A program made the translations under genes and the position numbers. Source: a virus (taxonomy: Duplodnaviria; Heunggongvirae; Uroviricota; Caudoviricetes). From it: 38,955 nucleotides of DNA. This document shows positions 4,519-37,424 of the stretch, piece by piece. The stretch is from IMG/VR virus record IMGVR_UViG_2939127364_000004; one strand, written 5' to 3'. Below the pieces are notes generated by a model. That model was not told the DNA's origin. It saw nothing but the letters and a program-made list of their open reading frames with translations, and made no database searches. Numbering within the stretch: the stretch's first letter is position 1; each line of letters starts with the position of its first letter.

Positions 4519-4546
4519 AATAAAAAAGGCCACCCGAAGGTAGCCT
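4519..4546 (-). terminator. Intrinsic terminator/attenuator between head-morphogenesis and scaffold genes (UUCG tetraloop hairpin plus U-run)
   Basis: Minus strand AGGCTACC-TTCG-GGTGGCCT followed by TTTTTTATTG. Confidence 0.45.
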
Positions 4547-5681: not shown

Positions 5682-7068
5682 TGATTTCCATCAGCATTAC
5701 ACTCTGATTTTTTAATTCATCGATCACTTCCTCTGGACGGGAATCCTGATCGATAAATTTCAACGCCTGCAACACCCGAACCGCATCAATCTGACGTATA
5801 TTACCGCCCTGACGCAATGACTGAACAGCCAGCGCGGAGGATGAGTCAAACACCTGGGCAGATACATCCAGTTCAGTGCGCACATCCACATTGCCACCGC
5901 AACTCTCTCCGATCCATTCCGCCATTATCTGGAGAATATTATCGAGGGCATCTTCGAGGGAGTTCGCCATTGTATAAAGCGGCGAGTTTTCCTGCATTCG
6001 CTCTTCATTAGTCTGATCAACAGATTTGGTGGATGTATTTTCAGCACGCAGAAGTTTAGCGCCGGCATGACGCATCTGATTTTCCAGCTTCTCAAGTGAT
6101 GTTTCGCCAGATTCTATCGCTGCGCCACTATGTTCAACATATTCGAGGCCATTTTTTGTTCTGTCCTCAAAAATCGTAGCGGTGGATGCACCAACCGTCA
6201 GTTCTTCATTCCTGTCCAGCCCGTAGGCCACCAGCAATGGAACGCGGGCAACATGAAGAATATTGTCCTGCTCGCTCTGGCTTTGCCAGTGCTTGATATT
6301 CAGCAAGCCAAGATTAAGCAATGGCGGTGTACCACGCATAAATCCTGTTTTCTTCGTGTACAGTGTTACCAGAGGAATATCATCACGGCTGGTATTCCAT
6401 GACTCATGAAGCGTCCAGACAGATTCGCCATTAGTGCCTTCGCTACGTCGATAAATTTCAACTCGACGGGGCATAATATGGCGGATCTGCTCCACCTTCT
6501 TCTGCCCGAAATCATCACCATCAATAATGATGACCTCTTTTATACGCAAATCAGTGAGAACAACTTTCCCTTTTTCAACTTTCGATTTCCATCCAATAAC
6601 CTGGCGTGGATTCAGCATCGTAACGTACGGACGACCACCGGTCGCGTTTTCATCGGCTTTTGTACGAATCTCTTTCATATCCGTTCGTGGATAGTCCACC
6701 AGCGCATGTGCCACACCATACTGAAATGCGAGGCTGAAAAATTGCTGCGCCCACACATCCAGTCGGCTCCCCTCCATGTCGATATTTTCTGCATATTCCC
6801 TGATTTTTGCCGGCGTTTCCTCACTCAATACTGTCGGCTCTGCAAATATGCGCCCAATATTTTGCTTGATGCTTTCTTCATACACAGGAAGTAGCGTAGC
6901 CACAGACAGGCGTTTTTTATAAGCGTCTTCATCTTCGTTAGGCCATTTTGGGAGATAATTTTCCCCCTGCCTGCGCATTTCAAGCGTACCGCCCATCAGT
7001 GCGTCGTTAATATCCCACGCCTCCAGCATATCGTTATAGTCGAGGTTGGGTGTTGATATATCAGCCAT
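5662..7068 (-). CDS. Portal protein
   Basis: 468-aa ORF immediately downstream of terminase large subunit, ATG 7068; acidic C-terminus; canonical position. Confidence 0.7.
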   Translation of the reverse strand: MADISTPNLDYNDMLEAWDINDALMGGTLEMRRQGENYLPKWPNEDEDAYKKRLSVATLLPVYEESIKQNIGRIFAEPTVLSEETPAKIREYAENIDMEGSRLDVWAQQFFSLAFQYGVAHALVDYPRTDMKEIRTKADENATGGRPYVTMLNPRQVIGWKSKVEKGKVVLTDLRIKEVIIIDGDDFGQKKVEQIRHIMPRRVEIYRRSEGTNGESVWTLHESWNTSRDDIPLVTLYTKKTGFMRGTPPLLNLGLLNIKHWQSQSEQDNILHVARVPLLVAYGLDRNEELTVGASTATIFEDRTKNGLEYVEHSGAAIESGETSLEKLENQMRHAGAKLLRAENTSTKSVDQTNEERMQENSPLYTMANSLEDALDNILQIMAEWIGESCGGNVDVRTELDVSAQVFDSSSALAVQSLRQGGNIRQIDAVRVLQALKFIDQDSRPEEVIDELKNQSVMLMEINDANRE

Positions 7069-7070
7069 AA

Positions 7071-8372
7071 TTAAATCCGAAGTGATGTGACTCTTCCGGT
7101 CGGTTTGACAATAGGGAATTGCTTAACGATGAAATAACCTCCGGCATCATTCGGGTGATCATTGCCAGATTTTTTATCAGGCTCCCCCTTCTCATCCCAG
7201 ACCTGTTGCTCCAGAGATTCGGCATATAACGGGCAACGCTTCACATTAACTTTATAGCGACGCTCACCATTGGCATTGCAGAACATTGCATTCATTGAGT
7301 TAACGCGATCTTTTACTGGCGGGTTCGAGCTGTTCACCACAACGTTAAAACCAGCCTGCTTAAGCTGGGCTATATCCGTCGTACTTGCGTTACTTGATTT
7401 TCTGGAATCCCCGGAAGCATCTGGATAAATATAAATTTCCCTCACTTTCCGGTAATCATTCCCATCATACAGCCAGAAGCGTTCTTTAATGATGCGGATC
7501 ATATCCGGCGTATCGTAGGCATTGATGATTTCAGTTACCGCACATGGAAGCCCCAAACGCAGCACATGGACGATTCCCGCCATCTTTCCAACGTTAAAAT
7601 CCATCCCAATATAAATCGGCTCCCCTGGCTGCTCCACTTCTTCGCAATTATTCAGTTTCCGGTCAAACTGATGGTAAACAGTACCACTTGTCAGGTTAGT
7701 AAACTGTCCTCGAAGATAGGCTTTAATCAGCTCTGGAGGGTATGATTCAAGAAGCGAAGGAATGTAATCTGCTGGCAGGTTCTTTTCATTATCGAAAGTA
7801 GATGCCTGCACCAGACCATACAGTGAGGCCAGCTCTGTTTTTTCACGCACGGCTTTAACAAACTGCTCGTAGACAAATTTGAATCCTTCCGGCGTGGTTG
7901 TAACGTCAATACCGTTGCGAAGTCCATCAATCTTATAACGCATACGTGCAATTATCTTGCGCCACGCCGTTCTGGCTTTTTCCTTCGGCAAAATGTCCAG
8001 TTCATCCACCAACGCATTACCAATTTTGAAACCGACGATCGTTTGTGGCTTCTCCATCGATCTGCAGATAGTGGTTCCCCGATACTGGCGTCCGTAATAA
8101 AAGTGAACCTCTTTATTTCCCTCATTAATTTTTACGTTCAATCCCCAGTCAGCAGCAACTTCTTCCACTGTAGGGTAAAAAATATCGCGAATTTGGGGAT
8201 ACGTTGGCGCAAAATATCCCTGATTTATACCTGGATGCTCCCAAATCCCCTTGCATATGCCGCCACACCCAACCCATGTTTTGCCCGAGCCAAAACCAGC
8301 AATATAGGCTTTAAATTTATGGGGCATTGAAAGAAATCGCGCCTGAGGCACATTAAGCGTCGGAGAGATCAT
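7071..8372 (-). CDS. Terminase large subunit
   Basis: Walker A motif GFGSGKT near N-terminus, nuclease-like C-terminal half; AAGGAG SD gives best spacing (8 nt) to ATG at 8372; ORF track extends to 8381. Confidence 0.85.
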   Translation of the reverse strand: MISPTLNVPQARFLSMPHKFKAYIAGFGSGKTWVGCGGICKGIWEHPGINQGYFAPTYPQIRDIFYPTVEEVAADWGLNVKINEGNKEVHFYYGRQYRGTTICRSMEKPQTIVGFKIGNALVDELDILPKEKARTAWRKIIARMRYKIDGLRNGIDVTTTPEGFKFVYEQFVKAVREKTELASLYGLVQASTFDNEKNLPADYIPSLLESYPPELIKAYLRGQFTNLTSGTVYHQFDRKLNNCEEVEQPGEPIYIGMDFNVGKMAGIVHVLRLGLPCAVTEIINAYDTPDMIRIIKERFWLYDGNDYRKVREIYIYPDASGDSRKSSNASTTDIAQLKQAGFNVVVNSSNPPVKDRVNSMNAMFCNANGERRYKVNVKRCPLYAESLEQQVWDEKGEPDKKSGNDHPNDAGGYFIVKQFPIVKPTGRVTSLRI

Positions 8373-9447
8373 CTTCATCACTCCTTACTCTGGCATCAAC
8401 CACATTAATATTGATCGCCACAGGCTGGGGATGTTCATTATCTTCCACCGTTTCGATCTCTTTGCGCAGCTTCTGGTTTTCCATTCTGCGCCGTTCAATT
8501 TCCAGTTCCTGTAGCCGTTTATCTGCACATAAAGCCCCGCCAGCAGAAAACAAACGCAACAATTCACGCCGGGCGGCAGCCTTATCCTCCAGCAGGATCT
8601 CAACGCCGAATTTTCCGAATTTTGCCCCTGCATATAATTGCCGCGCATCCCCATCAAGCAGAGTGGTATCAGCCATATAAAGCTGTCCCGTTCCCTCACC
8701 GCAGCACTTCGGGCAGTCCGGATTGGGTATGGCGTTATCAACAAAGCCGAGGCCTCCATATTCCGGTTCGGGTTTGCCATCTCTGGAAGCCTGCGCCGCT
8801 GCCTTGTCGAATTCTGCTATATCGCGCCACTGGTAGAGATGATTCTCGCCCCAGCAATAACGGCAGTTAACACGGCGAAATTGTGCAAGCTGATTGGGGT
8901 CGGCCAGGACAATAGCCATCAACTGACTCACTAGTAAATCCAGGTCTGCGGTATAGCGTTTCTGGTACTGATTGCGGAAGTAGCTGATAGCGCGAAAAAC
9001 CCTGGCATTTCTAAGCATACGACTGGCGTTGCTGTTAGCTGTCGCACCTTGCCCCTCATAACCGGCTAGTCGGTACGCCTCTGTCGGCTTTTTACCCTGA
9101 GCAACAAGCATCGCAAACTTAGCCTGCTGGTCAGAAATGCCGAATTCATCGGGACAGAACGAAAATTCCTCCGCGTCGCCCTCATTCAGGCCCGCATCGA
9201 ATACTGGCTTTTTTTCCTGAGATTTTTCGTTCCGCTTTTGTGCAGTCTGCGCAGATTTTTTCTGCGCACTTTTTTGCGCAGTTTTGCACATTTCTGTCTG
9301 CGCATTTTTCGGAGTTTTTTTGATGTAACGACGGGCTGTTGCGTAATTCAGTCCCCTTGCTTCACACCATGCCACCGGAGATATACCGGAGCGGGTGTAT
9401 TCAGCAATATACTCCTGCTGCAACGCCCCCCAGTCCGGTCTGCTCAT
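8353..9447 (-). CDS. Terminase small subunit with long C-terminal extension carrying a Cys cluster
   Basis: N-terminus LQQEYIAEYTRSGISPVAWCEARGLNYATARRY matches TerS HTH pattern; 364 aa is about twice typical TerS length; C-terminal CRYCW ... CPKCCGEG. Confidence 0.6.
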   Translation of the reverse strand: MSRPDWGALQQEYIAEYTRSGISPVAWCEARGLNYATARRYIKKTPKNAQTEMCKTAQKSAQKKSAQTAQKRNEKSQEKKPVFDAGLNEGDAEEFSFCPDEFGISDQQAKFAMLVAQGKKPTEAYRLAGYEGQGATANSNASRMLRNARVFRAISYFRNQYQKRYTADLDLLVSQLMAIVLADPNQLAQFRRVNCRYCWGENHLYQWRDIAEFDKAAAQASRDGKPEPEYGGLGFVDNAIPNPDCPKCCGEGTGQLYMADTTLLDGDARQLYAGAKFGKFGVEILLEDKAAARRELLRLFSAGGALCADKRLQELEIERRRMENQKLRKEIETVEDNEHPQPVAININVVDARVRSDEDDLSDA

Positions 9448-9450
9448 CAG

Positions 9451-9702
9451 TTAGTCCTGATTTTTATCCACCCTGAGTAGTTCGCGCAGAGCAAAGGCAT
9501 CCCCTTTTCTGGCAAGCTTAAACAATGCCGCTCGTAACTCGGCTTCACCTTTCGCTCTGCCCTTACGGATGGCCGCATAAAAATCTGTCATTGCTTCCCG
9601 ATTTTCTTTCAGTCGGTTCAGATCAACATCCAGAACGTCAGCGATTTGTTGTGCAGTCATCCGGCACGCTGCCAGAGACTCGACTTTCGAATACGGAATC
9701 AT
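9451..9702 (-). CDS. Small HTH-like protein (83 aa) directly upstream of terminase small subunit
   Basis: ATG 9702 with GGGGGTGA SD; MTAQQIADVLDVDLNRL helix-turn-helix-like segment; first 21 codons overlap the 3' end of the upstream gene. Confidence 0.4.
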   Translation of the reverse strand: MIPYSKVESLAACRMTAQQIADVLDVDLNRLKENREAMTDFYAAIRKGRAKGEAELRAALFKLARKGDAFALRELLRVDKNQD

Positions 9703-15217: not shown

Positions 15218-15540
15218 TTTTTTGCCCGTCCATATTCAACGGCTTCTTTGAGGAGTTCATTTTCCATCGTTTTCTTGCCGAGCAGGCGCTGGAGTTCTTT
15301 AATCTGCTTCATGGCGGCAGCAAGTTCAGAGGCAGGAACAACCTGTTCTCCGGCGGCGACAGCAGTAAGACTTCCTTCCTGATATTGCTTACGCCAGAGA
15401 AATAACTGGCTGGCTGCTACACCATGTTGCCGGGCAACGAGGGAGACCGTCATCCCCGGTTCAAAGCTCTGCTGAACAATTGCGATCTTTTCCTGTGTGG
15501 TACGCCGTCTGCGTTTCTCCGGCCCTAAGACATCAATCAT
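15175..15540 (-). CDS. insC: IS2 OrfA (InsC) HTH protein
   Basis: 121 aa from ATG 15540, [41 protein letters not shown]... Confidence 0.9.
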
Positions 15541-15847: not shown

Positions 15848-16243
15848 CTAACCTCGCATGTCAAAGCCAGATTTCTGAAAATCTCTGTAGACTTCCGGAT
15901 TGTTGAAGGCCGGAAATTTGGCTTTATGAGCTGCGGACTTTATCGCTTCGCAATAGGCTTTATCACCGTTACTGGTAGATATTTTTAACGCCGTGCCATC
16001 CTGAGAGAATTCCATATGCAACCTGCATTTTTTCCCTTTCCAGTTATGCGGCTCATCAAGTTTGGCATTAATTGCAGCTCTGATTCCCCGCGCTTGCGCC
16101 CCCCATTCATCCTGATCATCCCAGCGTCCTGAACTGCAACTACCTGTAGCAGTAGTTTTGTGGCAATCTGAAGGGTGTAAAGGTGTGCATCCCGCAACAA
16201 AACCGACCCAAAAAGTCAACATAACGATTTTCTTTAATCCCAC
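15848..16243 (-). CDS. Lipoprotein with TolA C-terminal domain III-like domain (paralog 1)
   Basis: GTG start 16243 with GAGGAG SD; signal peptide MGLKKIVMLTFWVGFVAGC (lipobox VAGC); C-terminal KGKKCRLHMEFSQDGTALKISTSNGDKAYCEAI...PEVYRDF aligns with TolA-III and with paralog 2. Confidence 0.7.
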   Translation of the reverse strand: MGLKKIVMLTFWVGFVAGCTPLHPSDCHKTTATGSCSSGRWDDQDEWGAQARGIRAAINAKLDEPHNWKGKKCRLHMEFSQDGTALKISTSNGDKAYCEAIKSAAHKAKFPAFNNPEVYRDFQKSGFDMRG

Positions 16244-16323
16244 TTCTTGCTCCTCAATCCATTAAAATCTCAGCAATAGTAGTTGTTACGTCCGCCACTG
16301 GCTCAGAGCTGACTATCCGCTAA

Positions 16324-17518
<1,195 letters not shown>

Positions 17519-17592: not shown

Positions 17593-18021
17593 TCAGGGTT
17601 TAAAATCCAGCACCCCATTTTGAAATACTTTATATACTTCCGGCGAAGGGGGGGCAGGTATATCAGCATTCTTTATCGCATTCATCGCTTCACGACATAA
17701 ATCGAGGTCTCCACTTTCTCTTTTAACCTCCAGTAGAAGGCCATTCGGGGCCATATGCATTCTCAGTGTACACTCTTTTCCTGAATACTTACTCGCATCC
17801 CCGAACTGTTTTTCGATGGCGCTCTTGATTTGATGGGCATACAGACGGATATCCTCACTAACATCAGAAGTACGTTCAGATGAACTCACATACTGTGTCT
17901 CTATTGCTTTATCGGAGTAATATGATGTACGGTCATGATAATTTGTCGATACAGCATCAGTGCACCCGATAATAATCCCACTAATAATCAACGTAAGAAT
18001 TGATGCGCTACGAAAACCCAT
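17593..18021 (-). CDS. Lipoprotein with TolA C-terminal domain III-like domain (paralog 2)
   Basis: ATG 18021 with GAGGA SD; signal peptide MGFRSASILTLIISGIIIGC; C-terminal YAHQIKSAIEKQFGDASKYSGKECTLRMHMAPNGLLLEVKRESGDLDLCREAMNAIKNADIPAPPSPEVYKVFQNGVLDFKP is roughly half identical to recalled E. coli TolA residues ~335-421. Confidence 0.75.
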   Translation of the reverse strand: MGFRSASILTLIISGIIIGCTDAVSTNYHDRTSYYSDKAIETQYVSSSERTSDVSEDIRLYAHQIKSAIEKQFGDASKYSGKECTLRMHMAPNGLLLEVKRESGDLDLCREAMNAIKNADIPAPPSPEVYKVFQNGVLDFKP

Positions 18022-18610
18022 TTTTCCTCACATATGTCATATAGTAAAGGATTATATATACCGTTGTTTTGGACGCTCAAACAGCGAATCAGATCAAATA
18101 AAACGCACATTTGTTAACATTTACACAAAGTCTGCGTGGGATATTCTGAAAGAATATCCATAATGTGGAGAGAATCTATTGAAGTGCATGGTGCCGGGTG
18201 CCTCCCGGTGAACAAAATGTTCGTGATACCTGTCGGCGACAGAAAAGGTTAATGGTATCACCCCACCGCACAGGGGGATTCACCATGCAGGAGTTTTCTT
18301 AGCAAACTCACTGCGCGCCCGGCAACTCCCAACCACATAAAATGCGGAGTTTGTGGTATTTATGCATATAACTCGCAGGAATTATCTTAAAAAACTGATG
18401 TCGATCCGGATTAAAAAGAAGCAGGTCATCATCAGATGACTGGAAAAAAGGAAAACAAAAAATACTCATCATACAGTTTTGATTGCAGGGATGAGCCTGC
18501 TATGCACAATATGCAGAATATAAGCAAGATAAAAATATGCAGGCATATTATTTCGGATTTTGTTATTAACACAACCTTTTTAATAATCATTTGGCATACA
18601 ATAAACCAGC

Positions 18611-20962: not shown

Positions 20963-21118
20963 TTACTCCTCAGGTTCGTAAGCTGTGAAGACAGCGACCT
21001 CCGTCTGACCGGTTCGGATTCGCACCTCGCAGAGGTCTTTCCTCGTTACCAGTGCCGTCACTATGACGGTTAAACAGATGACAATCAGTGCGACTAACAT
21101 CGCCTTTTGCTGCTTCAT
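20963..21118 (-). CDS. hokD: Hok/Gef-family type I toxin HokD (51 aa)
   Basis: MKQQKAMLVALIVICLTVIVTALVTRKDLCEVRIRTGQTEVAVFTAYEPEE; stable GGCGAGGGA-tttc-TCCCTCGCC hairpin 10 nt past the stop at 20932-20953. Confidence 0.85.
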   Translation of the reverse strand: MKQQKAMLVALIVICLTVIVTALVTRKDLCEVRIRTGQTEVAVFTAYEPEE

Positions 21119-21838
21119 AGCCTGCTTCTCCTTGCCTTCCGGCGCGTAAGAGGCTAACCTACATGTGCAAAGCATGAAATTGGCCTCAGATTAATGTTAA
21201 GCGTCTTGCCGGACGCGTAATGTTATCTGGGGCTTTTCTCTATCTGCCTTTGGTGTTCATGCCTGAGGCAGATAGCCTCAAGCACCCGCAGCAATTCTAC
21301 TTAACTCCCGTCACCTCGCCAATATAAAATCAATCAGAAAGGCGATCCATAAGAACAACAGCAAGACAATAAATTGCCATTACAGCCGCAATAGCTAGCG
21401 CACATTTGAGAACCAGCACGACAACCTCCTGTATTGGACGTACACCAGTTCTGATAAATATGAGGCTGTCTCATCATTGATTCAATATAACTATTGGGTA
21501 TAGTTTCTGTGATTTTGTTCTGTAGAAATGGAACACAACAACCAGTCACCACCAGCACTTCTTTAAATACGCCAAGTCCGACGCAAGCTAACCTTCTAGT
21601 CCGCTTTGAGCGAGGAGCGGACCAAACCCGGCCAACTGACTCTTAAAGGGGCCGCAGGAATTTTTCGTCTGAACTTTCGAAGCTCCTCTCCCTGAAGACA
21701 GAAAACTTCTGTGTGCTGTGGGAATATTGAATCTTTGCCTTAGATATAAATAATTTTATCCCGCCTGAAGTTTACATTATTTTATTTATCTGTTTTTCTA
21801 AATCAGACTGCACTCCTTACTTAAATCAGGAGCCAGTC

Positions 21839-23038
21839 ATGCCATTTGTTATTTATGTGTTTACTATCAGTGCCTTTGCGCTCGGACTCGCGGAATTTGT
21901 CCCCATTGGGCTGACAGACGTTATGGCTCAGGGGTTGTGTGTGGGTGTGGAGCAGACCGGGGCAGCGGTTACAACCTATGCACTGGGGGCAACGTTCGCG
22001 GCACCCGTACTGTCTGCGCTGACAGCAAGCTGGAGCCGGAAAAATGTAATGCTTACAACTGCCGTTGTGTTTACTGCCGGTAGTCTGGCGGCCGCGTTTG
22101 CAGCCACATTACCTCAGCTCCTGTTAGCGCGGTTCATTGCTGGTCTGGGACACGGCCTGTTTCTGGCTGCGGCATCCAGTACCGCAGCTCGTCTTGCTGG
22201 ACCGGGTAAAGCAGGCAGAGCGGTGGCTGTGGTATTTGGTGGCTTTACTCTGGCGATGGCAATCGGCGTACCGCTGAGTACATGGTTGGGGGGGGTGGTC
22301 TCATGGCGTCCAGTTCTCGGCGCTATTGCCGCTTTTGGCGCGTTCGGATTCCTTGGACTGTTGTTCGGTATGAAAGATCCCGTACGCAGCGTGCCCGGTG
22401 AACATAGTGACTCAGCAATGCAGAATATCGGCATGCTGTTTAACCGTAAGTTGCTGGCCGGCGCGCTGGTTACGGTGCTGGCGTATGCAGGCTCGTTTAC
22501 GGATTACACCTTTATCGCACCTATTCTGACGCAGGTGACAGGGGTTACCGGAGCAACGGTGAGTCTGTTTATGCTGGTTTACGGTATTACAGCTGCGGTA
22601 GGTAATATTCTTGGTGGGAAACTTACCGACAGCATGGGGGTTAATCGTGCCAATATACTCATCATTAGCGGCATTGTTGTTGTCGTGCTTGGTATGTGGC
22701 TGCTGTCATCCTCACCGGTGAGCATGGGCATTCTGGTTGCGCTGCTGGGTATGGTGACATTTGCCGCAGTGCCGGCACTGCAGGCCCGTCTGATTGGTGT
22801 CGCTGAGCAACATGCTCCTCATGCGCATGGTGTTGCTGCCGGCCTGAATATTGCGGGCTTCAACTCAGGTATAGCGCTGGGATCAGTACTGGGCAGCATT
22901 ACTATAAGCCACGCCGGTATCGTGTATACCGGTATCAGCGGTGCGATTGTTTCTCTGCTCGGCCTGCTGTTGCTGCTTGCACAAATCCGTCGCAGCCACA
23001 GTCGTAAATTTCAACAGGTTAAAATCGTAGGCCAGTAA
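21839..23038 (+). CDS. MFS transporter (12-TM, 399 aa)
   Basis: AGGAG SD; hydrophobic 12-helix pattern, Gly/Ala-rich, central cytoplasmic loop. Confidence 0.8.
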   Translation: MPFVIYVFTISAFALGLAEFVPIGLTDVMAQGLCVGVEQTGAAVTTYALGATFAAPVLSALTASWSRKNVMLTTAVVFTAGSLAAAFAATLPQLLLARFIAGLGHGLFLAAASSTAARLAGPGKAGRAVAVVFGGFTLAMAIGVPLSTWLGGVVSWRPVLGAIAAFGAFGFLGLLFGMKDPVRSVPGEHSDSAMQNIGMLFNRKLLAGALVTVLAYAGSFTDYTFIAPILTQVTGVTGATVSLFMLVYGITAAVGNILGGKLTDSMGVNRANILIISGIVVVVLGMWLLSSSPVSMGILVALLGMVTFAAVPALQARLIGVAEQHAPHAHGVAAGLNIAGFNSGIALGSVLGSITISHAGIVYTGISGAIVSLLGLLLLLAQIRRSHSRKFQQVKIVGQ

Positions 23039-23049
23039 AGGGAGGTTAT

Positions 23050-23742
23050 ATGCTTACCCGTGAAAATATGCTTAATGGCACATTTGTCAGGGTGCATGAA
23101 GCGCTGCTCCCGGCGAATATGCTCTGGGACGCTGAAAAAATACGCGCATCAATGAACTCTACTCTGGAGGAGCGCCCGACGGGTGCTCCTGTCTGGATAT
23201 TTGCCTACGGGTCATTGATGTGGAATCCCGTGCTGGCGATTGAAGAAATGCAACGGGCCCGTCTGAAAGGATGGCAGCGCAGTTTCTGCATTCGTTTGAT
23301 ATCCGGACGAGCGACTCCTGATGTCCCCGGCAGGATGTTATCGCTCGACGAAGGTGGAATTACCGAAGGTATTGCGTTCAGACTGCCGGAATCGACTCTT
23401 ATTAATGAGCTGGAAATTGTCTGGACGCGCGAGATGATAACCGGTCTTTACCGTCCGGTCTGGGCAGACGTTTCGCTAGGAAACGGTGAGGAAATTCAGG
23501 CGCTGGCTTTCGTATCAGACAGACTGCATCCGCATTATGAACAGGACAATCTTACAGCGACCGTAGCGTTGAGCATCGCATCTGCCCGTGGAGACATTGG
23601 CACGAATGCAGATTATGTATGGAAACTGCAGGCCACTCTGGGTGCGTTGGGAATACGGGATGATTACGTGAGTGAACTGGCCCTTGCTCTGCATGAGGCT
23701 CCCTGTAACGATAAACTTCATCAGCGAGGCGCTTCACTATGA
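23050..23742 (+). CDS. ChaC-family gamma-glutamylcyclotransferase-like protein
   Basis: GGAGG SD; WIFAYGSLMWNP (YGSL motif) and overall similarity to ChaC; 230 aa. Confidence 0.7.
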   Translation: MLTRENMLNGTFVRVHEALLPANMLWDAEKIRASMNSTLEERPTGAPVWIFAYGSLMWNPVLAIEEMQRARLKGWQRSFCIRLISGRATPDVPGRMLSLDEGGITEGIAFRLPESTLINELEIVWTREMITGLYRPVWADVSLGNGEEIQALAFVSDRLHPHYEQDNLTATVALSIASARGDIGTNADYVWKLQATLGALGIRDDYVSELALALHEAPCNDKLHQRGASL

Positions 23743-24620
23743 GCCATCTGAGCCATCTGCGAACGTTTCTTGAGGCCTATCGCTCTGGCTCCTTTTCAAA
23801 GGCGGCAGAACTACTGGGCATCACTCAGCCCGCGGCGTCACAGCATATCCAGTCTCTTGAGACTCTGGTTGGTAAGCGTCTGTTTATCAGGCAGGCCAGA
23901 GGCGTGACGGCAACCGAAGCTGCGGATGAGCTTGCCCGCTCAGTTTCACCCTTCATTGATGGTCTGGAAGAAAAGCTGTCCTCTTTCCGGTCAGGCTCTG
24001 TACGCGGGGGAACAATTAATCTGGCAGGACCGCCAGATTTTATTCATTCCCGGCTTGGGACAGTAATGGCTCCACTAATGAAGGAGGGGTATCGCCTACG
24101 CTTTCATACCGGCAATAAGCAACGTATTTATTCCCTTTTGCATGACGGGAGCGCCGATCTCGCTGTTACCGCATCTATGCCTGATGACCGTCTGTACGGC
24201 TATGCACATCTACTGACTGAACGCATGCTCCTTGTTCATGCTCCCGCCATGTCAGAGATCATCGGATCAGAACCTGGTGCTGAAACGCTTGCCTCATTAC
24301 CGCTGATTGCTTATGACGAAGAGTTGCCACTGATTAGAGCGCTCTGGGCCTCCATGTTTCAGAGAGCCCCTGAGATGCAGGCTACATTCACCATTCCGGA
24401 TTTACGTATTATCCGCGACTTGGTCTGTGACGGCCACGGGTGGACAGTGCTGCCGGATTATCACTGTGACAATGACCTGAAAAGTGGTCGCCTGATTTCA
24501 GTGACACCTGCAGACCTCGCTCCGACTAATCATCTTTATCTGGTCTGGAACAAAAGGACGGCTAATAACAGCCGAACCGCCTATGTTCGGGATTACATTC
24601 TTAAAACGTTTCCGCGTTGA
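23739..24620 (+). CDS. LysR-type transcriptional regulator
   Basis: N-terminal HTH LRTFLEAYRSGSFSKAAELLGITQPAASQHIQSLE; start overlaps ChaC stop (ATGA). Confidence 0.85.
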   Translation: MSHLSHLRTFLEAYRSGSFSKAAELLGITQPAASQHIQSLETLVGKRLFIRQARGVTATEAADELARSVSPFIDGLEEKLSSFRSGSVRGGTINLAGPPDFIHSRLGTVMAPLMKEGYRLRFHTGNKQRIYSLLHDGSADLAVTASMPDDRLYGYAHLLTERMLLVHAPAMSEIIGSEPGAETLASLPLIAYDEELPLIRALWASMFQRAPEMQATFTIPDLRIIRDLVCDGHGWTVLPDYHCDNDLKSGRLISVTPADLAPTNHLYLVWNKRTANNSRTAYVRDYILKTFPR

Positions 24621-24750
24621 TGTTTGAAACGGATGATTGGCGATGCGTATCATAAGTTACGTATGTCCGCTTCTGGCACAAAGCAGACGCCCACTCTCAC
24701 GCGAATGCTTTGCCCTTGACTTGCCAACAACCGTATCGCTTGCTCCGCAA

Positions 24751-26043
24751 CTATGGTTTTTTATTAGAATCTTCGCCACTAAATAAATTATAATAAATTG
24801 ATTTTATTAGATATCTGTCAGAATCTATATGGTCAGCACGAGTAGCATGCTCTAATGTTTCAAATGCTAGGGTTTGTGCGGCTTCAGCAAAAATTCCAGG
24901 CCAACCCTTACTCAGCATCGACAGTCCTTTAAGTACCCTTATCTGAATTTCCCTCATACTGGCACCATCGCGCGCAACAGGTGAGAAAAAGTCTTCAAGT
25001 AGATCGTTATTCTGAAGTGGTGCAACATGTACAGAAGGATATTTCACTTCTATTTCATCAGATTTATTCTGCGCGTAAGCGGAAAGTATACGTACACCTC
25101 TGCCAATGACATCAATGGCGGTTCCTGGATCGTTCACTGCGGGGGAAAGGGCTCGGCAGGCTATTTCGGCCATGACGCTAAGACAAAATCGGGGGTCCTG
25201 AGCAAATGAACGTACATCCGAGACAATAATCGTCTCAAGTAAATCGGTGCTGATTGATGACTCCTGGCCCTGACTCAGGTACAAAACTGGCGTGGACGGA
25301 TGTATGAAACTGCCCGGCTGCGCCACGAGGTATACATGACGGGGATCATTGGTCAGCAGCTTGCTGAGTTTCACCATATCAACATATTCAACATAGCCAA
25401 TCTTTTTCGGATAAACTGCAACCGTTCCTTTCGGCTGTTCATTGTTCTCAAGCCATGGATATCCGCCGAGACAGGGATTTCTTGCTCTCGCAATAAATGT
25501 TTCGATGGCCGCCTGTTCTACTTTTGCCGTTGTCTCACCAACCCTCCCCAGAGAGGTCAAATGCTGTATCCAGCGAAGCAATGTGATGAGGATTAAGGCA
25601 ATGACAACCAGTGTTACAATGAATAAAATGACTCTCCCCCTTTCTCCATAAGCTCCCATATTGAGGGCAATAATCCCTACCAGACTGAAGAGAAAAGAAC
25701 CGATGAAGGTGGCCAGTACATTTTGTGTGGTGACGTCTTCAACAACTAAACGAGTAGCTCTGGGAGTCACATTAGTAGTGGCTGAACCGTAGGCTGTGAC
25801 CATGATGCTCAGCGAAAATGTGGTCACTGCCAGCATACTCGATGCCAGTATGTTCAGAATGTTATCGACTGCTTCCGCACCAACCTTCACGGAAACCGAC
25901 TCAGGTATCATTGATTTAAAAAGAATTGATAAAAGGGCCGTTATTATTGCGACAATTGCGAATAACGTTGCCCTGAACCATAGTTTTTTAAATGTCTGCT
26001 TCAGCATCCATTTCCAGCGTGAAATCATTCTGCATTCCCTCAT
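24751..26043 (-). CDS. DUF2254-family membrane protein (N-terminal TM domain plus soluble C-terminal domain)
   Basis: 430-aa ORF with 4-5 N-terminal TM helices; family from recollection; alternative start at 26028 has better SD. Confidence 0.5.
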   Translation of the reverse strand: MRECRMISRWKWMLKQTFKKLWFRATLFAIVAIITALLSILFKSMIPESVSVKVGAEAVDNILNILASSMLAVTTFSLSIMVTAYGSATTNVTPRATRLVVEDVTTQNVLATFIGSFLFSLVGIIALNMGAYGERGRVILFIVTLVVIALILITLLRWIQHLTSLGRVGETTAKVEQAAIETFIARARNPCLGGYPWLENNEQPKGTVAVYPKKIGYVEYVDMVKLSKLLTNDPRHVYLVAQPGSFIHPSTPVLYLSQGQESSISTDLLETIIVSDVRSFAQDPRFCLSVMAEIACRALSPAVNDPGTAIDVIGRGVRILSAYAQNKSDEIEVKYPSVHVAPLQNNDLLEDFFSPVARDGASMREIQIRVLKGLSMLSKGWPGIFAEAAQTLAFETLEHATRADHIDSDRYLIKSIYYNLFSGEDSNKKP

Positions 26044-26063
26044 ATTGCAGCCGGGATAAATAA

Positions 26064-26084
26064 ATGCCGCCTCTGTGGCGGCAT
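26064..26084 (-). terminator. Intrinsic terminator downstream of BCCT transporter gene
   Basis: Minus strand ATGCCGCC-acaga-GGCGGCAT followed by TTATTTAT. Confidence 0.5.
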
Positions 26085-26091
26085 GTTGCTG

Positions 26092-28095
26092 TTAACGAAC
26101 CAGATGCAGGAAGTGCAGGTGTTTTTCGTACTGGTCCAGTATGTCATTAATCAGCTGTTCCTGATTCCAGCCCATTACATCATAATTTTGGCCGCCCTCT
26201 TTGAGATAGACTTCAGCGCGATAATATCGATGTTGTTCACTCTGCTGCTCATCATTATCCAGCGCAGCGAGCGCGAAGGTCGGTGAGTTATACCCGCGAA
26301 GCCTCACTTCATATATATAATTCAGCTCGTTGCCCAAATCGACTTCAAGGCGAATACGATCCTCGGCGGCGTCACTGATGTGGCTTATCGTTCCCTGCTT
26401 GTTAAGTTCCTCCTGAACCAGCGTCATGGCGGGTTGGATAATGTCGTCCATAAAACGTTTCACAAGAGAGCGCTTCGGCAAATACGCGATATTGCGTAAC
26501 CTTCTCTGCCAGGGAATTGGGTTACGTGCAGCCGTAGGAGCAATAGTCGCCATGCTAAGGCTTTCACGCTTGGTCAAATCCCGACGCAGGGCTTTTAACA
26601 GTCCGTATATGGATATTAATAAGATAACTGAGAAGGGCAATGCACTCGCTATCGTTACGGTTTGCAACGCACTCAGCCCCCCTGCGATCAGCAGGGCAAT
26701 AGCAACAACGCCCATGAGCGATGCCCAGAAAATTCGCTGCCAGACGGGCGTGTTTGCCACCCCACCTGATGCCAGAGTATCCACAACCATTGCCCCCGAA
26801 TCAGCAGACGTTACAAAGAAGACGATGACCATCGCCATTGCAATGAATGACAGCACGGAAGAGAACGGGAAATGCTCCAGGAAATTAAACAGGGCAAGCG
26901 CAACATCCTGCTGAACGGTATTGGCGAGGTCAGTGGCGCCCTGGTTCATGATGAGATAGATGGCGCTGTTTCCAAACACCGTCATCCACATGAGCGTAAA
27001 GCCGGCGGGAACAAACAACACGCCAGTCACGAACTCACGAATTGTCCTGCCGCGGGAAACGCGTGCAATGAACATACCTACAAACGGCGACCATGAAAGC
27101 CACCATCCCCAGTATAATAATGTCCAGCCCCCCAGCCAGTTGCTCGACTTGGGTTCATACGCGTAAAGGTTGAACGTTTTACTCACCAGTTCCGACAGAT
27201 AACCACCCGTATTTTCCACAAATGACTTCAGCAGAAGCACAGTGGGACCCAGGCACAAGACCAGCGCCAGGAGCAACACCGCCAGGCCCAGATTAAGCTC
27301 AGACAGGATGCGTATTCCCTTGTCCAGGCCGGACACCACCGAAATCGTCGCTAACCCCGTGATGACCACGATCAAAATGACCTGTACCGTTTCATTGATG
27401 GGCACGCCGAAAAGATGGTTCAAACCGGCATTCACCTGCAATACACCGTAACCCAGCGATGTTGCAACGCCAAAGACAGTGCCTATCACGGCGAAGATAT
27501 CAACCGCGTGGCCTATAGGCCCGTAAATGCGATCGCCGATAATGGGATAGAGCGCAGAACGCAGCGTTAAAGGCAGACCGTGACGGTAACTGAAAAAGGC
27601 CAGAATCAGCGCCACGATGGCATAAATTGCCCATGCGTGCAGACCCCAGTGGAAGAACGTCAGGCGCATGGCTTCCTTCGCTGCCGCAACGGTCTCTGGA
27701 GTGCCGACAGGTGGCGAAAGATAATGCATCACAGGTTCGGCAACGCCAAAGAACATCAGGCCGATCCCCATCCCTGCCGAAAAAAGCATCGCGAACCAGG
27801 AGTGGTAGCTGAAATCAGGCTGCGCATGGTCTGGGCCCAGCTTTATATCACCGTAACGTGAGAGTCCAAGGAACGTGACGCTCAGTAAAATCAGGGCCAC
27901 AGCAAGTATGTAGAACCAGCTGGCATTCGTGAAGATTTGTTGCTGAAGTAGTTTAAAATTTTTGTCGGCGACATCCGGGAATACGGCGGCAAAGGCGACA
28001 AGAAGGAAAATTAGCAAAGCAGATGTAAAGAATACCGCTTTGTTAATCTGGCTTGTAGACTTCTTTGGGGTTGTATCATTTTCACTCATAATCAT
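26092..28095 (-). CDS. BCCT-family transporter, BetT-like (667 aa with long cytoplasmic C-terminal tail)
   Basis: Conserved BCCT blocks (WTLLYWGWWLSWSPFVGMFIARVSRGRTIREF); length and C-terminal extension as in choline transporter BetT but sequence clearly distinct from E. coli BetT. Confidence 0.85.
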   Translation of the reverse strand: MIMSENDTTPKKSTSQINKAVFFTSALLIFLLVAFAAVFPDVADKNFKLLQQQIFTNASWFYILAVALILLSVTFLGLSRYGDIKLGPDHAQPDFSYHSWFAMLFSAGMGIGLMFFGVAEPVMHYLSPPVGTPETVAAAKEAMRLTFFHWGLHAWAIYAIVALILAFFSYRHGLPLTLRSALYPIIGDRIYGPIGHAVDIFAVIGTVFGVATSLGYGVLQVNAGLNHLFGVPINETVQVILIVVITGLATISVVSGLDKGIRILSELNLGLAVLLLALVLCLGPTVLLLKSFVENTGGYLSELVSKTFNLYAYEPKSSNWLGGWTLLYWGWWLSWSPFVGMFIARVSRGRTIREFVTGVLFVPAGFTLMWMTVFGNSAIYLIMNQGATDLANTVQQDVALALFNFLEHFPFSSVLSFIAMAMVIVFFVTSADSGAMVVDTLASGGVANTPVWQRIFWASLMGVVAIALLIAGGLSALQTVTIASALPFSVILLISIYGLLKALRRDLTKRESLSMATIAPTAARNPIPWQRRLRNIAYLPKRSLVKRFMDDIIQPAMTLVQEELNKQGTISHISDAAEDRIRLEVDLGNELNYIYEVRLRGYNSPTFALAALDNDEQQSEQHRYYRAEVYLKEGGQNYDVMGWNQEQLINDILDQYEKHLHFLHLVR

Positions 28096-28429
28096 TTATT
28101 CCATTAATTAAATCCGCACTGGATAGAAGGTACTACCTCTCACAGAGTAGCAAAGTTCAACTGGCTATGCGGGGTTAATCGGAATGCATGGTGGAATGAG
28201 TGCCGATACAAATCATCCTATATTCTAAGGAGTTTTAAGTTACTCAGCCTGCCAATTACTGGGGCATTTAATTTGTATGATCTGTATCAAAGCTGGGATA
28301 TAAGTTAAGTGAAGTATATTAGGCACGAATTACCAGCGTCTGCTCTTGGCACAAAGCGGACAACCACGCTAGCTCTACCCTGTGCCACAAAATGTCAATT
28401 TGCATCTGAACTAATGCACTTTAATCTCG

Positions 28430-37027: not shown

Positions 37028-37222
37028 ATGAGATATGACAATGTTAAACCATGTCCATTTTGTGGTTGTCCATCAGTAACGGTGAAAGCCATTTCAGGAT
37101 ATTACCGAGCGAAGTGTAACGGATGCGAATCCCGAACCGGTTATGGTGGAAGTGAAAAAGAAGCACTCGAAAGATGGAATAAACGAACCACTGGAAATAA
37201 TAATGGAGGTGTTCATGTATAA
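37028..37222 (+). CDS. ralR: Restriction alleviation protein RalR/Lar (64 aa)
   Basis: MRYDNVKPCPFCGCPSVTVKAISGYYRAKCNGCESRTGYGGSEKEALERWNKRTTGNNNGGVHV. Confidence 0.8.
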   Translation: MRYDNVKPCPFCGCPSVTVKAISGYYRAKCNGCESRTGYGGSEKEALERWNKRTTGNNNGGVHV

Positions 37223-37424
37223 AATTACCGCCACTATTGAAAAGGAAGGTGGCACTCCTACTAACTGGACAAGATATTCAAAATCTAAACTAACGAAATC
37301 AGAATGCGAAAAAATGCTCTCAGGTAAAAAAGAAGCAGGCGTTTCCAGAGAGCAGAAAGTAAAACTGATAAATTTTAATTGCGAGAAACTTCAGTCCTCG
37401 AGAATTGCATTGTATTCAAATTAA
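37215..37424 (+). CDS. ydaC: YdaC/RcbA-like small protein (69 aa)
   Basis: ATG 37215 with GGAGGTG SD overlapping ralR 3' end; position before xis. Confidence 0.5.
   Translation: MYKITATIEKEGGTPTNWTRYSKSKLTKSECEKMLSGKKEAGVSREQKVKLINFNCEKLQSSRIALYSN

Follow-up and report, generated by a model that had tools for sequence, protein, structure and literature searches.

A ChaC-family operon with a transporter and a LysR-type regulator is carried as a palindrome-bounded cassette in a lambdoid prophage

The closest described systems to the locus reported here are ChaC-type gamma-glutamylcyclotransferases and, for its genomic setting, the cargo hotspots of phages P2 and P4. The conserved active-site residues of human ChaC2 are Tyr6, Gly7, Ser8, Arg40, Glu83, Tyr87, and Tyr144, with Glu83 as the conserved catalytic Glu (PMC7022552). 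In Escherichia coli K-12, overexpression of chaC lowers cellular glutathione according to a preprint (bioRxiv 10.64898/2026.05.15.725350). The major facilitator superfamily (MFS) protein NgtA of Francisella novicida, which belongs to the Pht family, imports intact glutathione for cytoplasmic breakdown, and its clade is confined to Francisella and related Thiotrichales (bioRxiv 10.1101/2023.02.02.526638; PMC7340319). Cargo hotspots of P2 and P4 have been described, with no mention of flanking sites and with the mechanism of exchange left open (Rousset et al. 2022, PMC9122126). Here we describe three genes encoding an MFS transporter, a ChaC-like enzyme, and a LysR-type regulator in a 38,955-nt stretch of DNA from a virus of the Caudoviricetes (IMG/VR record IMGVR_UViG_2939127364_000004), hereafter the window. 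The operon is prophage cargo in a discrete cassette of ~3.1 kb (21599-24688) with defined palindromic ends, a feature absent from the original prediction made for this DNA. The reading that we favor, with modest confidence, is that of a mobile ~3.1-kb cassette carrying a glutathione-type ChaC operon with its MFS and LysR genes and moving at the palindromes.

In the list of open reading frames (ORFs), all three genes lie on the plus strand: the MFS gene at 21839-23038 (399 aa), the ChaC-like gene at 23050-23742 (230 aa), and the LysR gene at 23739-24620 (293 aa). Inspection of the sequence reveals that the MFS stop codon TAA (23036-23038) is followed by an 11-nt spacer on the plus strand, AGGGAGGTTAT (23039-23049), and then by the ChaC ATG. 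This spacer carries a GGGAGG Shine-Dalgarno sequence and forms the MFS/ChaC coupling junction. At the second junction, an ATGA at 23739-23742 overlaps the LysR start codon (23739-23741) with the ChaC stop codon TGA (23740-23742). The start codons of the trio appear sound because the ChaC-like protein opens with MLTRENMLNG..., in parallel to the MITRDFLMNAD... of E. coli ChaC, and the helix-turn-helix of the LysR protein begins at residue 4. Transcription of the operon runs against that of the phage early genes on either side. The coordinates and the sequence thus bear out the original prediction of three co-oriented genes with 11-nt and ATGA junctions, and the translationally coupled layout that it proposed, with a co-oriented LysR gene in last position, recurs as the gene order in every copy of the operon. 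Overall, the sequence supports the view of the MFS, ChaC, and LysR genes as one operon with translational coupling and a functional link.

The ChaC-like protein, RefSeq WP_000957772.1, matches the Pfam family ChaC (PF04752) over residues 48-212 with 122.3 bits against a cut-off of 21, which places it in the family. It is 45% identical over 216 residues to K-12 ChaC (b1218), which its RefSeq record annotates as a glutathione-specific gamma-glutamylcyclotransferase. Moreover, the canonical chromosomal chaC is present in 5419 of 5426 complete E. coli genomes, in agreement with the original prediction that the window holds a second ChaC homolog distinct from the chaABC locus. In alignments of 12 and 50 homologs, Tyr53, Gly54, Ser55, Leu56, Trp58, Asn59, Pro60, Arg77, Gly86, Arg87, Pro93, Met96, and Leu97 are invariant, as are Arg127, Glu128, Met129, Gly132, Tyr134, Asn186, and Tyr189. 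The counterparts of the ChaC2 active-site residues are Tyr53, Gly54, Ser55, Arg87, Glu128, Tyr134, and Tyr189. The YGSL motif, which holds the gamma-glutamyl carboxylate, is present and aligns with Tyr6-Leu9 of ChaC2. The catalytic acid/base glutamate (Glu83 in ChaC2, Glu116 in yeast) is found as Glu128 within an invariant Arg-Glu-Met, the same as in the KREMITGCY stretch of K-12 ChaC. The equivalence of Glu128 and Glu83 was drawn from motif context because bacterial ChaC proteins have a two-residue insert before the G-x-Y, which puts the pairwise HMMER alignment with ChaC2 out of register by two residues. His39 and Tyr109 of ChaC2 are replaced by Gly and Phe, likewise in E. coli ChaC.

An AlphaFold2 model of the ChaC-like protein, built on 50 sequences, has a mean predicted local distance difference test score (pLDDT) of 92.7. 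The best Protein Data Bank (PDB) matches of this model by Foldseek are human ChaC2 (6ky1, E 5.5e-16, template modeling score 0.85 on the target) and yeast Gcg1 (5hwi, E 9e-14), with the generic GGCT 3cry (E 2e-8) and GGACT 3jub (E 6e-4) far behind. The modeled GGCT fold is therefore closest to the ChaC subfamily. The original prediction would have been undermined by a protein that lacked the catalytic Glu and the YGSL-type active site on structural modeling; the Glu, the YGSL motif, and the fold are all present. Taken together, the sequence and the predicted structure identify the middle gene as one encoding a bona fide ChaC-family protein, in which no signal peptide is visible and which is predicted to be cytoplasmic.

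Comparing the window with other genomes, it becomes clear that the trio is conserved. It occurs in the same order and with the same 4-nt ChaC/LysR overlap, at 82-92% nucleotide identity, in unrelated surroundings: the chromosome of Enterobacter sp. BIGb0383, a 213-kb metagenome contig, an island in a metagenome-assembled genome (MAG), and an IncF conjugative plasmid of Klebsiella pneumoniae (NZ_LR890357.1, 92% nucleotide identity). The ChaC proteins of the Enterobacter, metagenome-contig, and MAG copies are 90%, 90%, and 83% identical to that of the window and have MFS and LysR partners of equal length, the LysR gene of the MAG copy being broken. In Citrobacter sp. wls619, ChaC identity falls to 56% at the amino-acid level; the order is the same, and a 160-nt gap precedes the LysR gene. 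The phmmer scores of the MFS/LysR partners drop in step with ChaC (763/600, 699/599, and 568/386 bits). Beside more distant ChaC homologs from other species, orthologous MFS or LysR partners were found at 0 of 80 loci. Because the order is kept in five further contexts, the proteins diverge jointly, and the 80 distant loci have no such partners, the trio is a clade-specific, co-inherited module. The complete ChaC cassette is present in 296 complete E. coli genomes (of the 5426 surveyed for chaC). None of the INPHARED phage genomes contains it, and within IMG/VR it is seen in this one prophage type only. On the IncF plasmid (L092, 1197-3610 and 8870-11958), the cassette lies ~5 kb from a klebsidin lasso-peptide cluster and adjoins the repA region.

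The neighbors of the wider ChaC clade include LysR genes at 6 of 16 loci, along with FMN reductases, glutathione S-transferase (GST), Grx2, HlyD-type efflux adaptors, and a luciferase-like monooxygenase. These neighbors fit glutathione, redox, or detoxification chemistry and do not fix a role. Relatives from Serratia and Erwinia (~60% identity; L002 7414-8669; L003 and L089 ~6000-9600) are not paired with an MFS gene; they adjoin FMN reductase, SnoaL-like, luciferase-like monooxygenase, Grx2, and LysR genes, neighborhoods that hint at a sulfur or redox context for this ChaC clade.

The window is a Rac-like lambdoid prophage at ttcA that encodes RecET, according to the RefSeq annotation of the matching prophage. 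On one side of the trio lies hokD/sok, and on the other lie the genes for DUF977 and the replisome organizer. The hokD backbone is shared by many other E. coli prophages, which match the window only up to 21613-21622. In other E. coli prophages, the same slot holds AbiH, a hypothetical/methyltransferase/SMEK set, or a 340-aa protein; its occupants in the isolated phages Evi and Tritos are an acetyltransferase and a 444-aa protein. As unrelated genes lie between the same conserved phage genes in these relatives, the slot is a cargo hotspot.

Both ends of the cassette are formed by a 24-nt palindrome, GTCCGCT-N10-AGCRGAC, whose loop falls into two classes: class A, (T/A)TGAGCGA(G/A)G, and class B, YYTGGCACAR. 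The left end is a class A palindrome, GTCCGCT-TTGAGCGAGG-AGCGGAC (21599-21622), where similarity to other copies starts. A class B palindrome, GTCCGCT-TCTGGCACAA-AGCAGAC (24665-24688), where this similarity ends, serves as the right end and also as the left end of a second cassette. That second cassette encodes, on the minus strand (24751-28095), a DUF2254 membrane protein (24751-26043) and a BCCT transporter of the BetT-like type (26092-28095), as assigned by Pfam; NCBIfam has no family for the DUF2254 protein. A further class B palindrome found by the motif scan, GTCTGCT-CTTGGCACAA-AGCGGAC (28338-28361), ends the cargo array, after which the backbone begins (AACCACGC..., DUF977). The second cassette is thus enclosed by two class B sites, and the order in the window is A, MFS-ChaC-LysR, B, DUF2254-BCCT, B, and phage backbone. 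Similarity between the window and the plasmid and MAG copies starts at 21598/21608 and ends at 24688/24689, and copies of the second cassette that lack the first match from 24663 onward. The site at 28338 recurs together with its flank in phages Evi and Tritos, as it does in numerous prophages whose cargo differs. A degenerate class B-like palindrome with two stem mismatches, also found by the motif scan (16290-16313), adjoins a TolA-domain moron, and the same site lies beside TolA-like genes in three other loci (L095, L162, and L086).

The palindrome motif occurs at 4 sites in the window, against 0.27 expected from shuffles, and at 7 sites with the same threshold in 1.16 Mb of non-phage ChaC loci. 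An exact-stem scan of the IMG/VR viral contigs gave 130 sites. The loop is of the A or B type in 99 of them, compared with a chance expectation of about 2 by our own binomial estimate. Site pairs mostly read A, cargo, B on one strand, with 50 intervals (43 distinct) of 0.5-5.7 kb. In arrays, ~18 nt separate a B site from the A site that comes after it, creating a composite of ~66 nt. Exceptions to this order are B-B and A-A neighbors, such as the B-B pair around the second cassette. The cargo of A/B cassettes includes defense types (DRT reverse transcriptase, TIR, SLATT, PDC-S15, PDC-S35, and HD-CE) as well as ordinary enzymes (SDR, GNAT, HAD, glyoxalase, and NUDIX).

The same sites are shared between phage families. 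In phage P2 (NC_070905.1), a B site at 15423-15446 after gene G and an A site at 17021-17044 before gene FI enclose Z/fun (2924-2947 and 4522-4545 in locus L216), and A/B palindromes flank the hotspot cargo of the lambdoid phages Evi (L215: 2895 and 4313) and Tritos (L217: 2208 and 4009). A 1-kb cassette is 99.7% identical between a lambdoid (L141) and a P2-like (L201) backbone, its identity beginning within the A palindrome and ending in the B loop. The second cassette of the window (24663-28385) has a 99.5% identical counterpart in strain Res13-Lact-ER01-35, where it fills the Z/fun slot of a P2-like prophage (L230), and a 94% version occupies a chromosomal locus beside a TetR gene (L218) in ~950 complete E. 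coli genomes. Near-identical cassettes thus sit in lambdoid as well as P2-like backbones and break off inside the palindromes, which makes the palindromes the junctions of cargo swapping. No empty sites, that is, a single palindrome between P2-type or lambdoid-type flanks, were found in the compared loci or IMG/VR. The exchange could proceed by short-homology recombination, as the prophage encodes RecET, or by a dedicated enzyme. We raise tentatively, as the less probable case, that the A/B palindromes might be the sites of an undescribed dedicated cassette-exchange system, integron-like but without a known integrase, which would move 0.5-6 kb defense and metabolic cassettes among lambdoid and P2-like phages, plasmids, and chromosomal islands of Enterobacteriaceae, with the ChaC operon as one passenger. 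Neither the palindrome sequences nor flanking sites were found in the literature searched. A 2004 paper on P2 by Nilsson, Karlsson, and Haggard-Ljungquist (Mol Biol Evol 21:1), outside that search, invokes site-specific recombination in its title and may already describe the sites for P2.

Several known elements were compared with the palindromes. An intrinsic terminator was rejected, as a T run is missing after all four sites and the terminator scan called none, and Rfam at E<=1 found nothing at the palindromes in the two junction regions. XerCD/dif-like sites and REP/RAYT elements were dropped by inspection, as the sites resemble neither dif nor the REP consensus. A sigma-54 promoter was dropped because the TGGCAC of the loop lacks a TTGC at the right spacing, and nut/boxB sites were dropped because number and places are wrong, again by inspection. 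The backbone ~28 nt past class B sites carries CTGTGCCA (28362-28400 in the window), an inverted copy of the B-loop sequence TGGCACA, so that the loop could pair in another way. P2-type flanks in many loci show a further symmetry, as the 9-nt stretches on the outer side of the A site and of the B site (AATCTGACA / TGTCAGATT) form an inverted repeat.

The first gene of the operon encodes a protein that matches MFS_1 in Pfam with 145 bits in two stretches (residues 9-328 and beyond), so that both six-helix halves of the superfamily are represented. The best NCBIfam models align end to end and include Cmx/CmrA (207 bits; cut-off 400), SotB (158; 401), AraJ (139; 499), and NepI (110; 584). The sole PDB relative is the SotB efflux transporter 6kki, which aligns over the full length (E 1e-26). 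From its sequence, the protein is DHA1/SotB-like, working at most like the named efflux families and belonging to none of them. Since the best curated families and the solved relative are all efflux proteins, the transport direction leans to efflux, if anywhere.

The last gene encodes a LysR-type protein with the domains HTH_1 (75 bits) and LysR_substrate (92 bits) in Pfam. No named LysR subfamily of NCBIfam reaches its cut-off, with ArgP/LysG at 88.5 against 197. Upstream of the MFS start, ~115 nt (21726-21838, plus strand) are conserved in an alignment of five contexts, the Citrobacter copy included, and this promoter/operator region is present in every copy of the operon. It contains an inverted repeat, ATAAA-N4-TTTAT (21746-21759), which reads TATAAA-N4-TTTATA in most copies and is a plausible candidate for the site of the LysR regulator, and a Shine-Dalgarno AGGAG (21828-21832) before the MFS gene. 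The promoter scan called promoter-like hexamers at 21727-21754; as it gave 8 hits against 4.3 expected from shuffles, no better than the shuffles, no promoter is claimed. Between the A palindrome and this region lies a leader (21623-21725, plus strand) that is confined to the palindrome-bounded copies: it is present in the window, the MAG (L086), and the plasmid (L092) and is missing from the chromosomal copies L083 and L084. The leader has no Rfam match.

In the model that we propose, the cytoplasmic ChaC protein would cut the gamma-glutamyl bond of glutathione, a glutathione-derived compound, or a closely related one, releasing 5-oxoproline and the remaining peptide (Cys-Gly in the case of glutathione). 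The 12-helix DHA1/SotB-like transporter would carry out the membrane step of the same chemistry. Its relatives make efflux somewhat likelier than uptake, the exported compound being either a product or a toxic gamma-glutamyl or glutathione-linked substance. The LysR protein most likely binds the upstream inverted repeat, and its ligand would switch the operon on, creating positive feedback. The cassette would move between replicons by recombination at its terminal palindromes, A on the left and B on the right.

Some observations weigh against this model. No NCBIfam equivalog names the ChaC-like protein, and glutathione specificity is not established, because the protein is only 45% identical to E. 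coli ChaC and ~23% to the human enzyme. Every score of the transporter for Cmx/CmrA, SotB, AraJ, and NepI lies under the curated cut-off, at about half or less. The repeat in front of the operon has a spacing of N4 (T-N10-A), unlike the textbook LysR site T-N11-A, and the promoter scan did not convincingly place a sigma-70 promoter for the operon. The chromosomal copies of Enterobacter sp. BIGb0383 and the metagenome contig have no palindromes, so the operon exists outside the cassette form too. As for the palindromes themselves, the site at 21599 folds as a DNA hairpin of -7.2 kcal/mol (z -2.6), the folding energies are modest in general, and the changes in the stems are mostly one-sided with no clear covariation. 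Given these one-sided changes and a sample picked by stem match, we make no claim of covariation, and the one-sided changes together with the modest energies suggest that the sites may work through short homology and not as structured sites for recombination. Finally, by analogy with the Francisella importer, uptake by the MFS protein would be a live alternative.

The original prediction was a self-contained uptake-and-degradation module: the MFS protein, as a dedicated importer, would bring in glutathione or a gamma-glutamyl peptide, ChaC would cleave it, the products would serve as a sulfur or nitrogen source, and LysR would sense the substrate. The operon, the ChaC identity, and the layout with LysR last have held up; the dedicated importer is not supported, as the relatives Cmx/CmrA, SotB, AraJ, and NepI, matched below their cut-offs, are all efflux proteins. 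We regard this uptake model as possible but less probable than the one that we propose. A precedent exists in Francisella novicida, where NgtA imports glutathione and ChaC contributes to growth on it, but NgtA comes from a different MFS family, Pht, and the nearest characterized relatives of the transporter studied here all work in efflux. The ChaC relatives of ~60% identity adjoin FMN reductase and luciferase-like monooxygenase genes, a typical sulfur-scavenging context, and a transporter, an enzyme, and a regulator in one operon are the usual layout of an accessory catabolic module. The enzyme lacks a signal peptide, so an external substrate would need import. However, the E. coli cytoplasm contains millimolar glutathione, and with the cell already full of it, a cytoplasmic, glutathione-specific ChaC needs no importer for its substrate and would act on the internal pool regardless of import. 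In addition, E. coli already has Ggt and the Gsi ATP-binding cassette (ABC) importer.

An anti-phage or abortive-infection cassette, in which infection-induced ChaC would drain glutathione or a needed gamma-glutamyl metabolite in the manner of NAD or nucleotide depletion, seems very unlikely to us. Although the same prophage slot holds AbiH, methyltransferase/SMEK, and other defense-like genes in other strains, and the same palindromes bound DRT reverse transcriptases, TIR, SLATT, PDC-S15, and PDC-S35, none of the five cargo proteins of the window matches PADLOC at E 0.01. Many palindrome-bounded cassettes are plainly metabolic, with SDR, GNAT, HAD, glyoxalase, or NUDIX genes. The trio is also found in ordinary chromosomal neighborhoods of Enterobacter and Citrobacter, and a transporter with a LysR regulator corresponds to no known defense layout. 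Least probable of all is that the three genes are accidental neighbors brought together by horizontal transfer with no shared function. MFS and LysR genes are extremely common and the pairing is absent at the 80 distant ChaC loci, but the gene order is kept over five independent surroundings down to 56% ChaC identity, the three proteins diverge in step, and the cassette ends enclose exactly these three genes.

Over the whole window, Rfam at the gathering score has only three matches: sok at 21113-21287 beside hokD, RalA, the antitoxin RNA of the ralR system, at 37221-37399, and STnc100 at 18132-18318, all on the minus strand. An IS5-family transposase gene (16356-17372) begins 43 nt past the degenerate palindrome at 16290 and has a TolA C-terminal-domain ORF on either side (15848-16243 and 17593-18021). 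The prophage of strain ECCHD184 (L001), otherwise identical to the window, is without this insertion sequence. In the MAG island (L086, 7546-16431), the ChaC cassette is followed after 18 nt by a second A-to-B cassette of 5.7 kb, which contains a 937-aa HD-CE/HATPase_c_3 protein and small ORFs and whose end adjoins a TolA-domain gene like that of the window.

No study of the operon was found in the literature searched. By itself, the operon adds a new and unstudied member to known families, one that is routinely annotated in RefSeq. About one in 20 complete E. coli genomes has a second, regulated enzyme of the glutathione-cleaving type with its own transporter, delivered by a prophage. In gut and poultry isolates, the operon could affect thiol balance, the scavenging of sulfur, or how well toxins linked to glutathione are tolerated. 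The more surprising result is the palindrome-bounded packaging common to phage families and a plasmid. The same two short sites connect P2 Z/fun, lambdoid prophage hotspots, and a Klebsiella plasmid, and the cassette ends provide base-level junctions for the exchange of hotspot cargo, so that the question of how hotspots exchange their cargo becomes directly testable. Phage cargo, candidate defense genes included, can also be catalogued simply by searching for the A and B sites. A dedicated exchange system, if true, would be the missing mechanism for the rapid cargo turnover in phage hotspots.

Compared with known enzymes, the ChaC-like protein resembles E. coli ChaC, human ChaC1/ChaC2, and yeast Gcg1 in its Pfam family and predicted fold, and it has the length and N-terminal extension of E. 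coli ChaC. The motifs YGSLxWNP, GR, PGRML, REM...G.Y, and GxNxxY are common to ChaC/Gcg1 enzymes and this protein. It differs from E. coli ChaC in its 45% identity, its location away from chaAB, its own transporter and regulator, and its mobile cassette. Similar to Francisella, where NgtA and the cytoplasmic Cgc1/ChaC act in one glutathione pathway, an MFS protein and a ChaC protein are combined here, which makes that system the precedent for uptake; however, NgtA is described as a Pht-family protein, whereas the transporter of the window is DHA1/SotB-like. The DHA1 efflux transporters SotB, AraJ, NepI, and Cmx/CmrA align with it over the full length, and some DHA1 transporters are paired with LysR activators, for example in PunR-PunC, much as a LysR gene lies at the locus of the window. 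Here, by contrast, the regulator is the last gene of the operon and not divergent, and the transporter is coupled to an enzyme.

The cassettes themselves recall integron cassettes with attC sites in being 0.5-6 kb units, promoter-poor or self-contained, arranged in arrays with imperfect palindromes between them. However, inspection of the aligned sites reveals GTCCGCT-N10-AGCRGAC without the GTTRRRY core, and so an integron gene cassette was rejected; the A/B sites moreover form two classes with fixed loops and lie in phage genomes. An IntI-type integrase is not noted in the window by the RefSeq annotation of the matching prophage, which was consulted in place of a dedicated search. The closest parallel is found in the P2 Z/fun, tin/old, and P4 hotspots, where a variable slot between conserved phage genes likewise holds strain-specific cargo. 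The Z/fun slot is even flanked by the same palindromes and, in a P2-like prophage, holds a copy of the second cassette. In contrast to the published account of the P2/P4 hotspots, the junctions are here resolved to the base and are common to lambdoid phages, P2-like phages, and a plasmid, and the cargo is metabolic.

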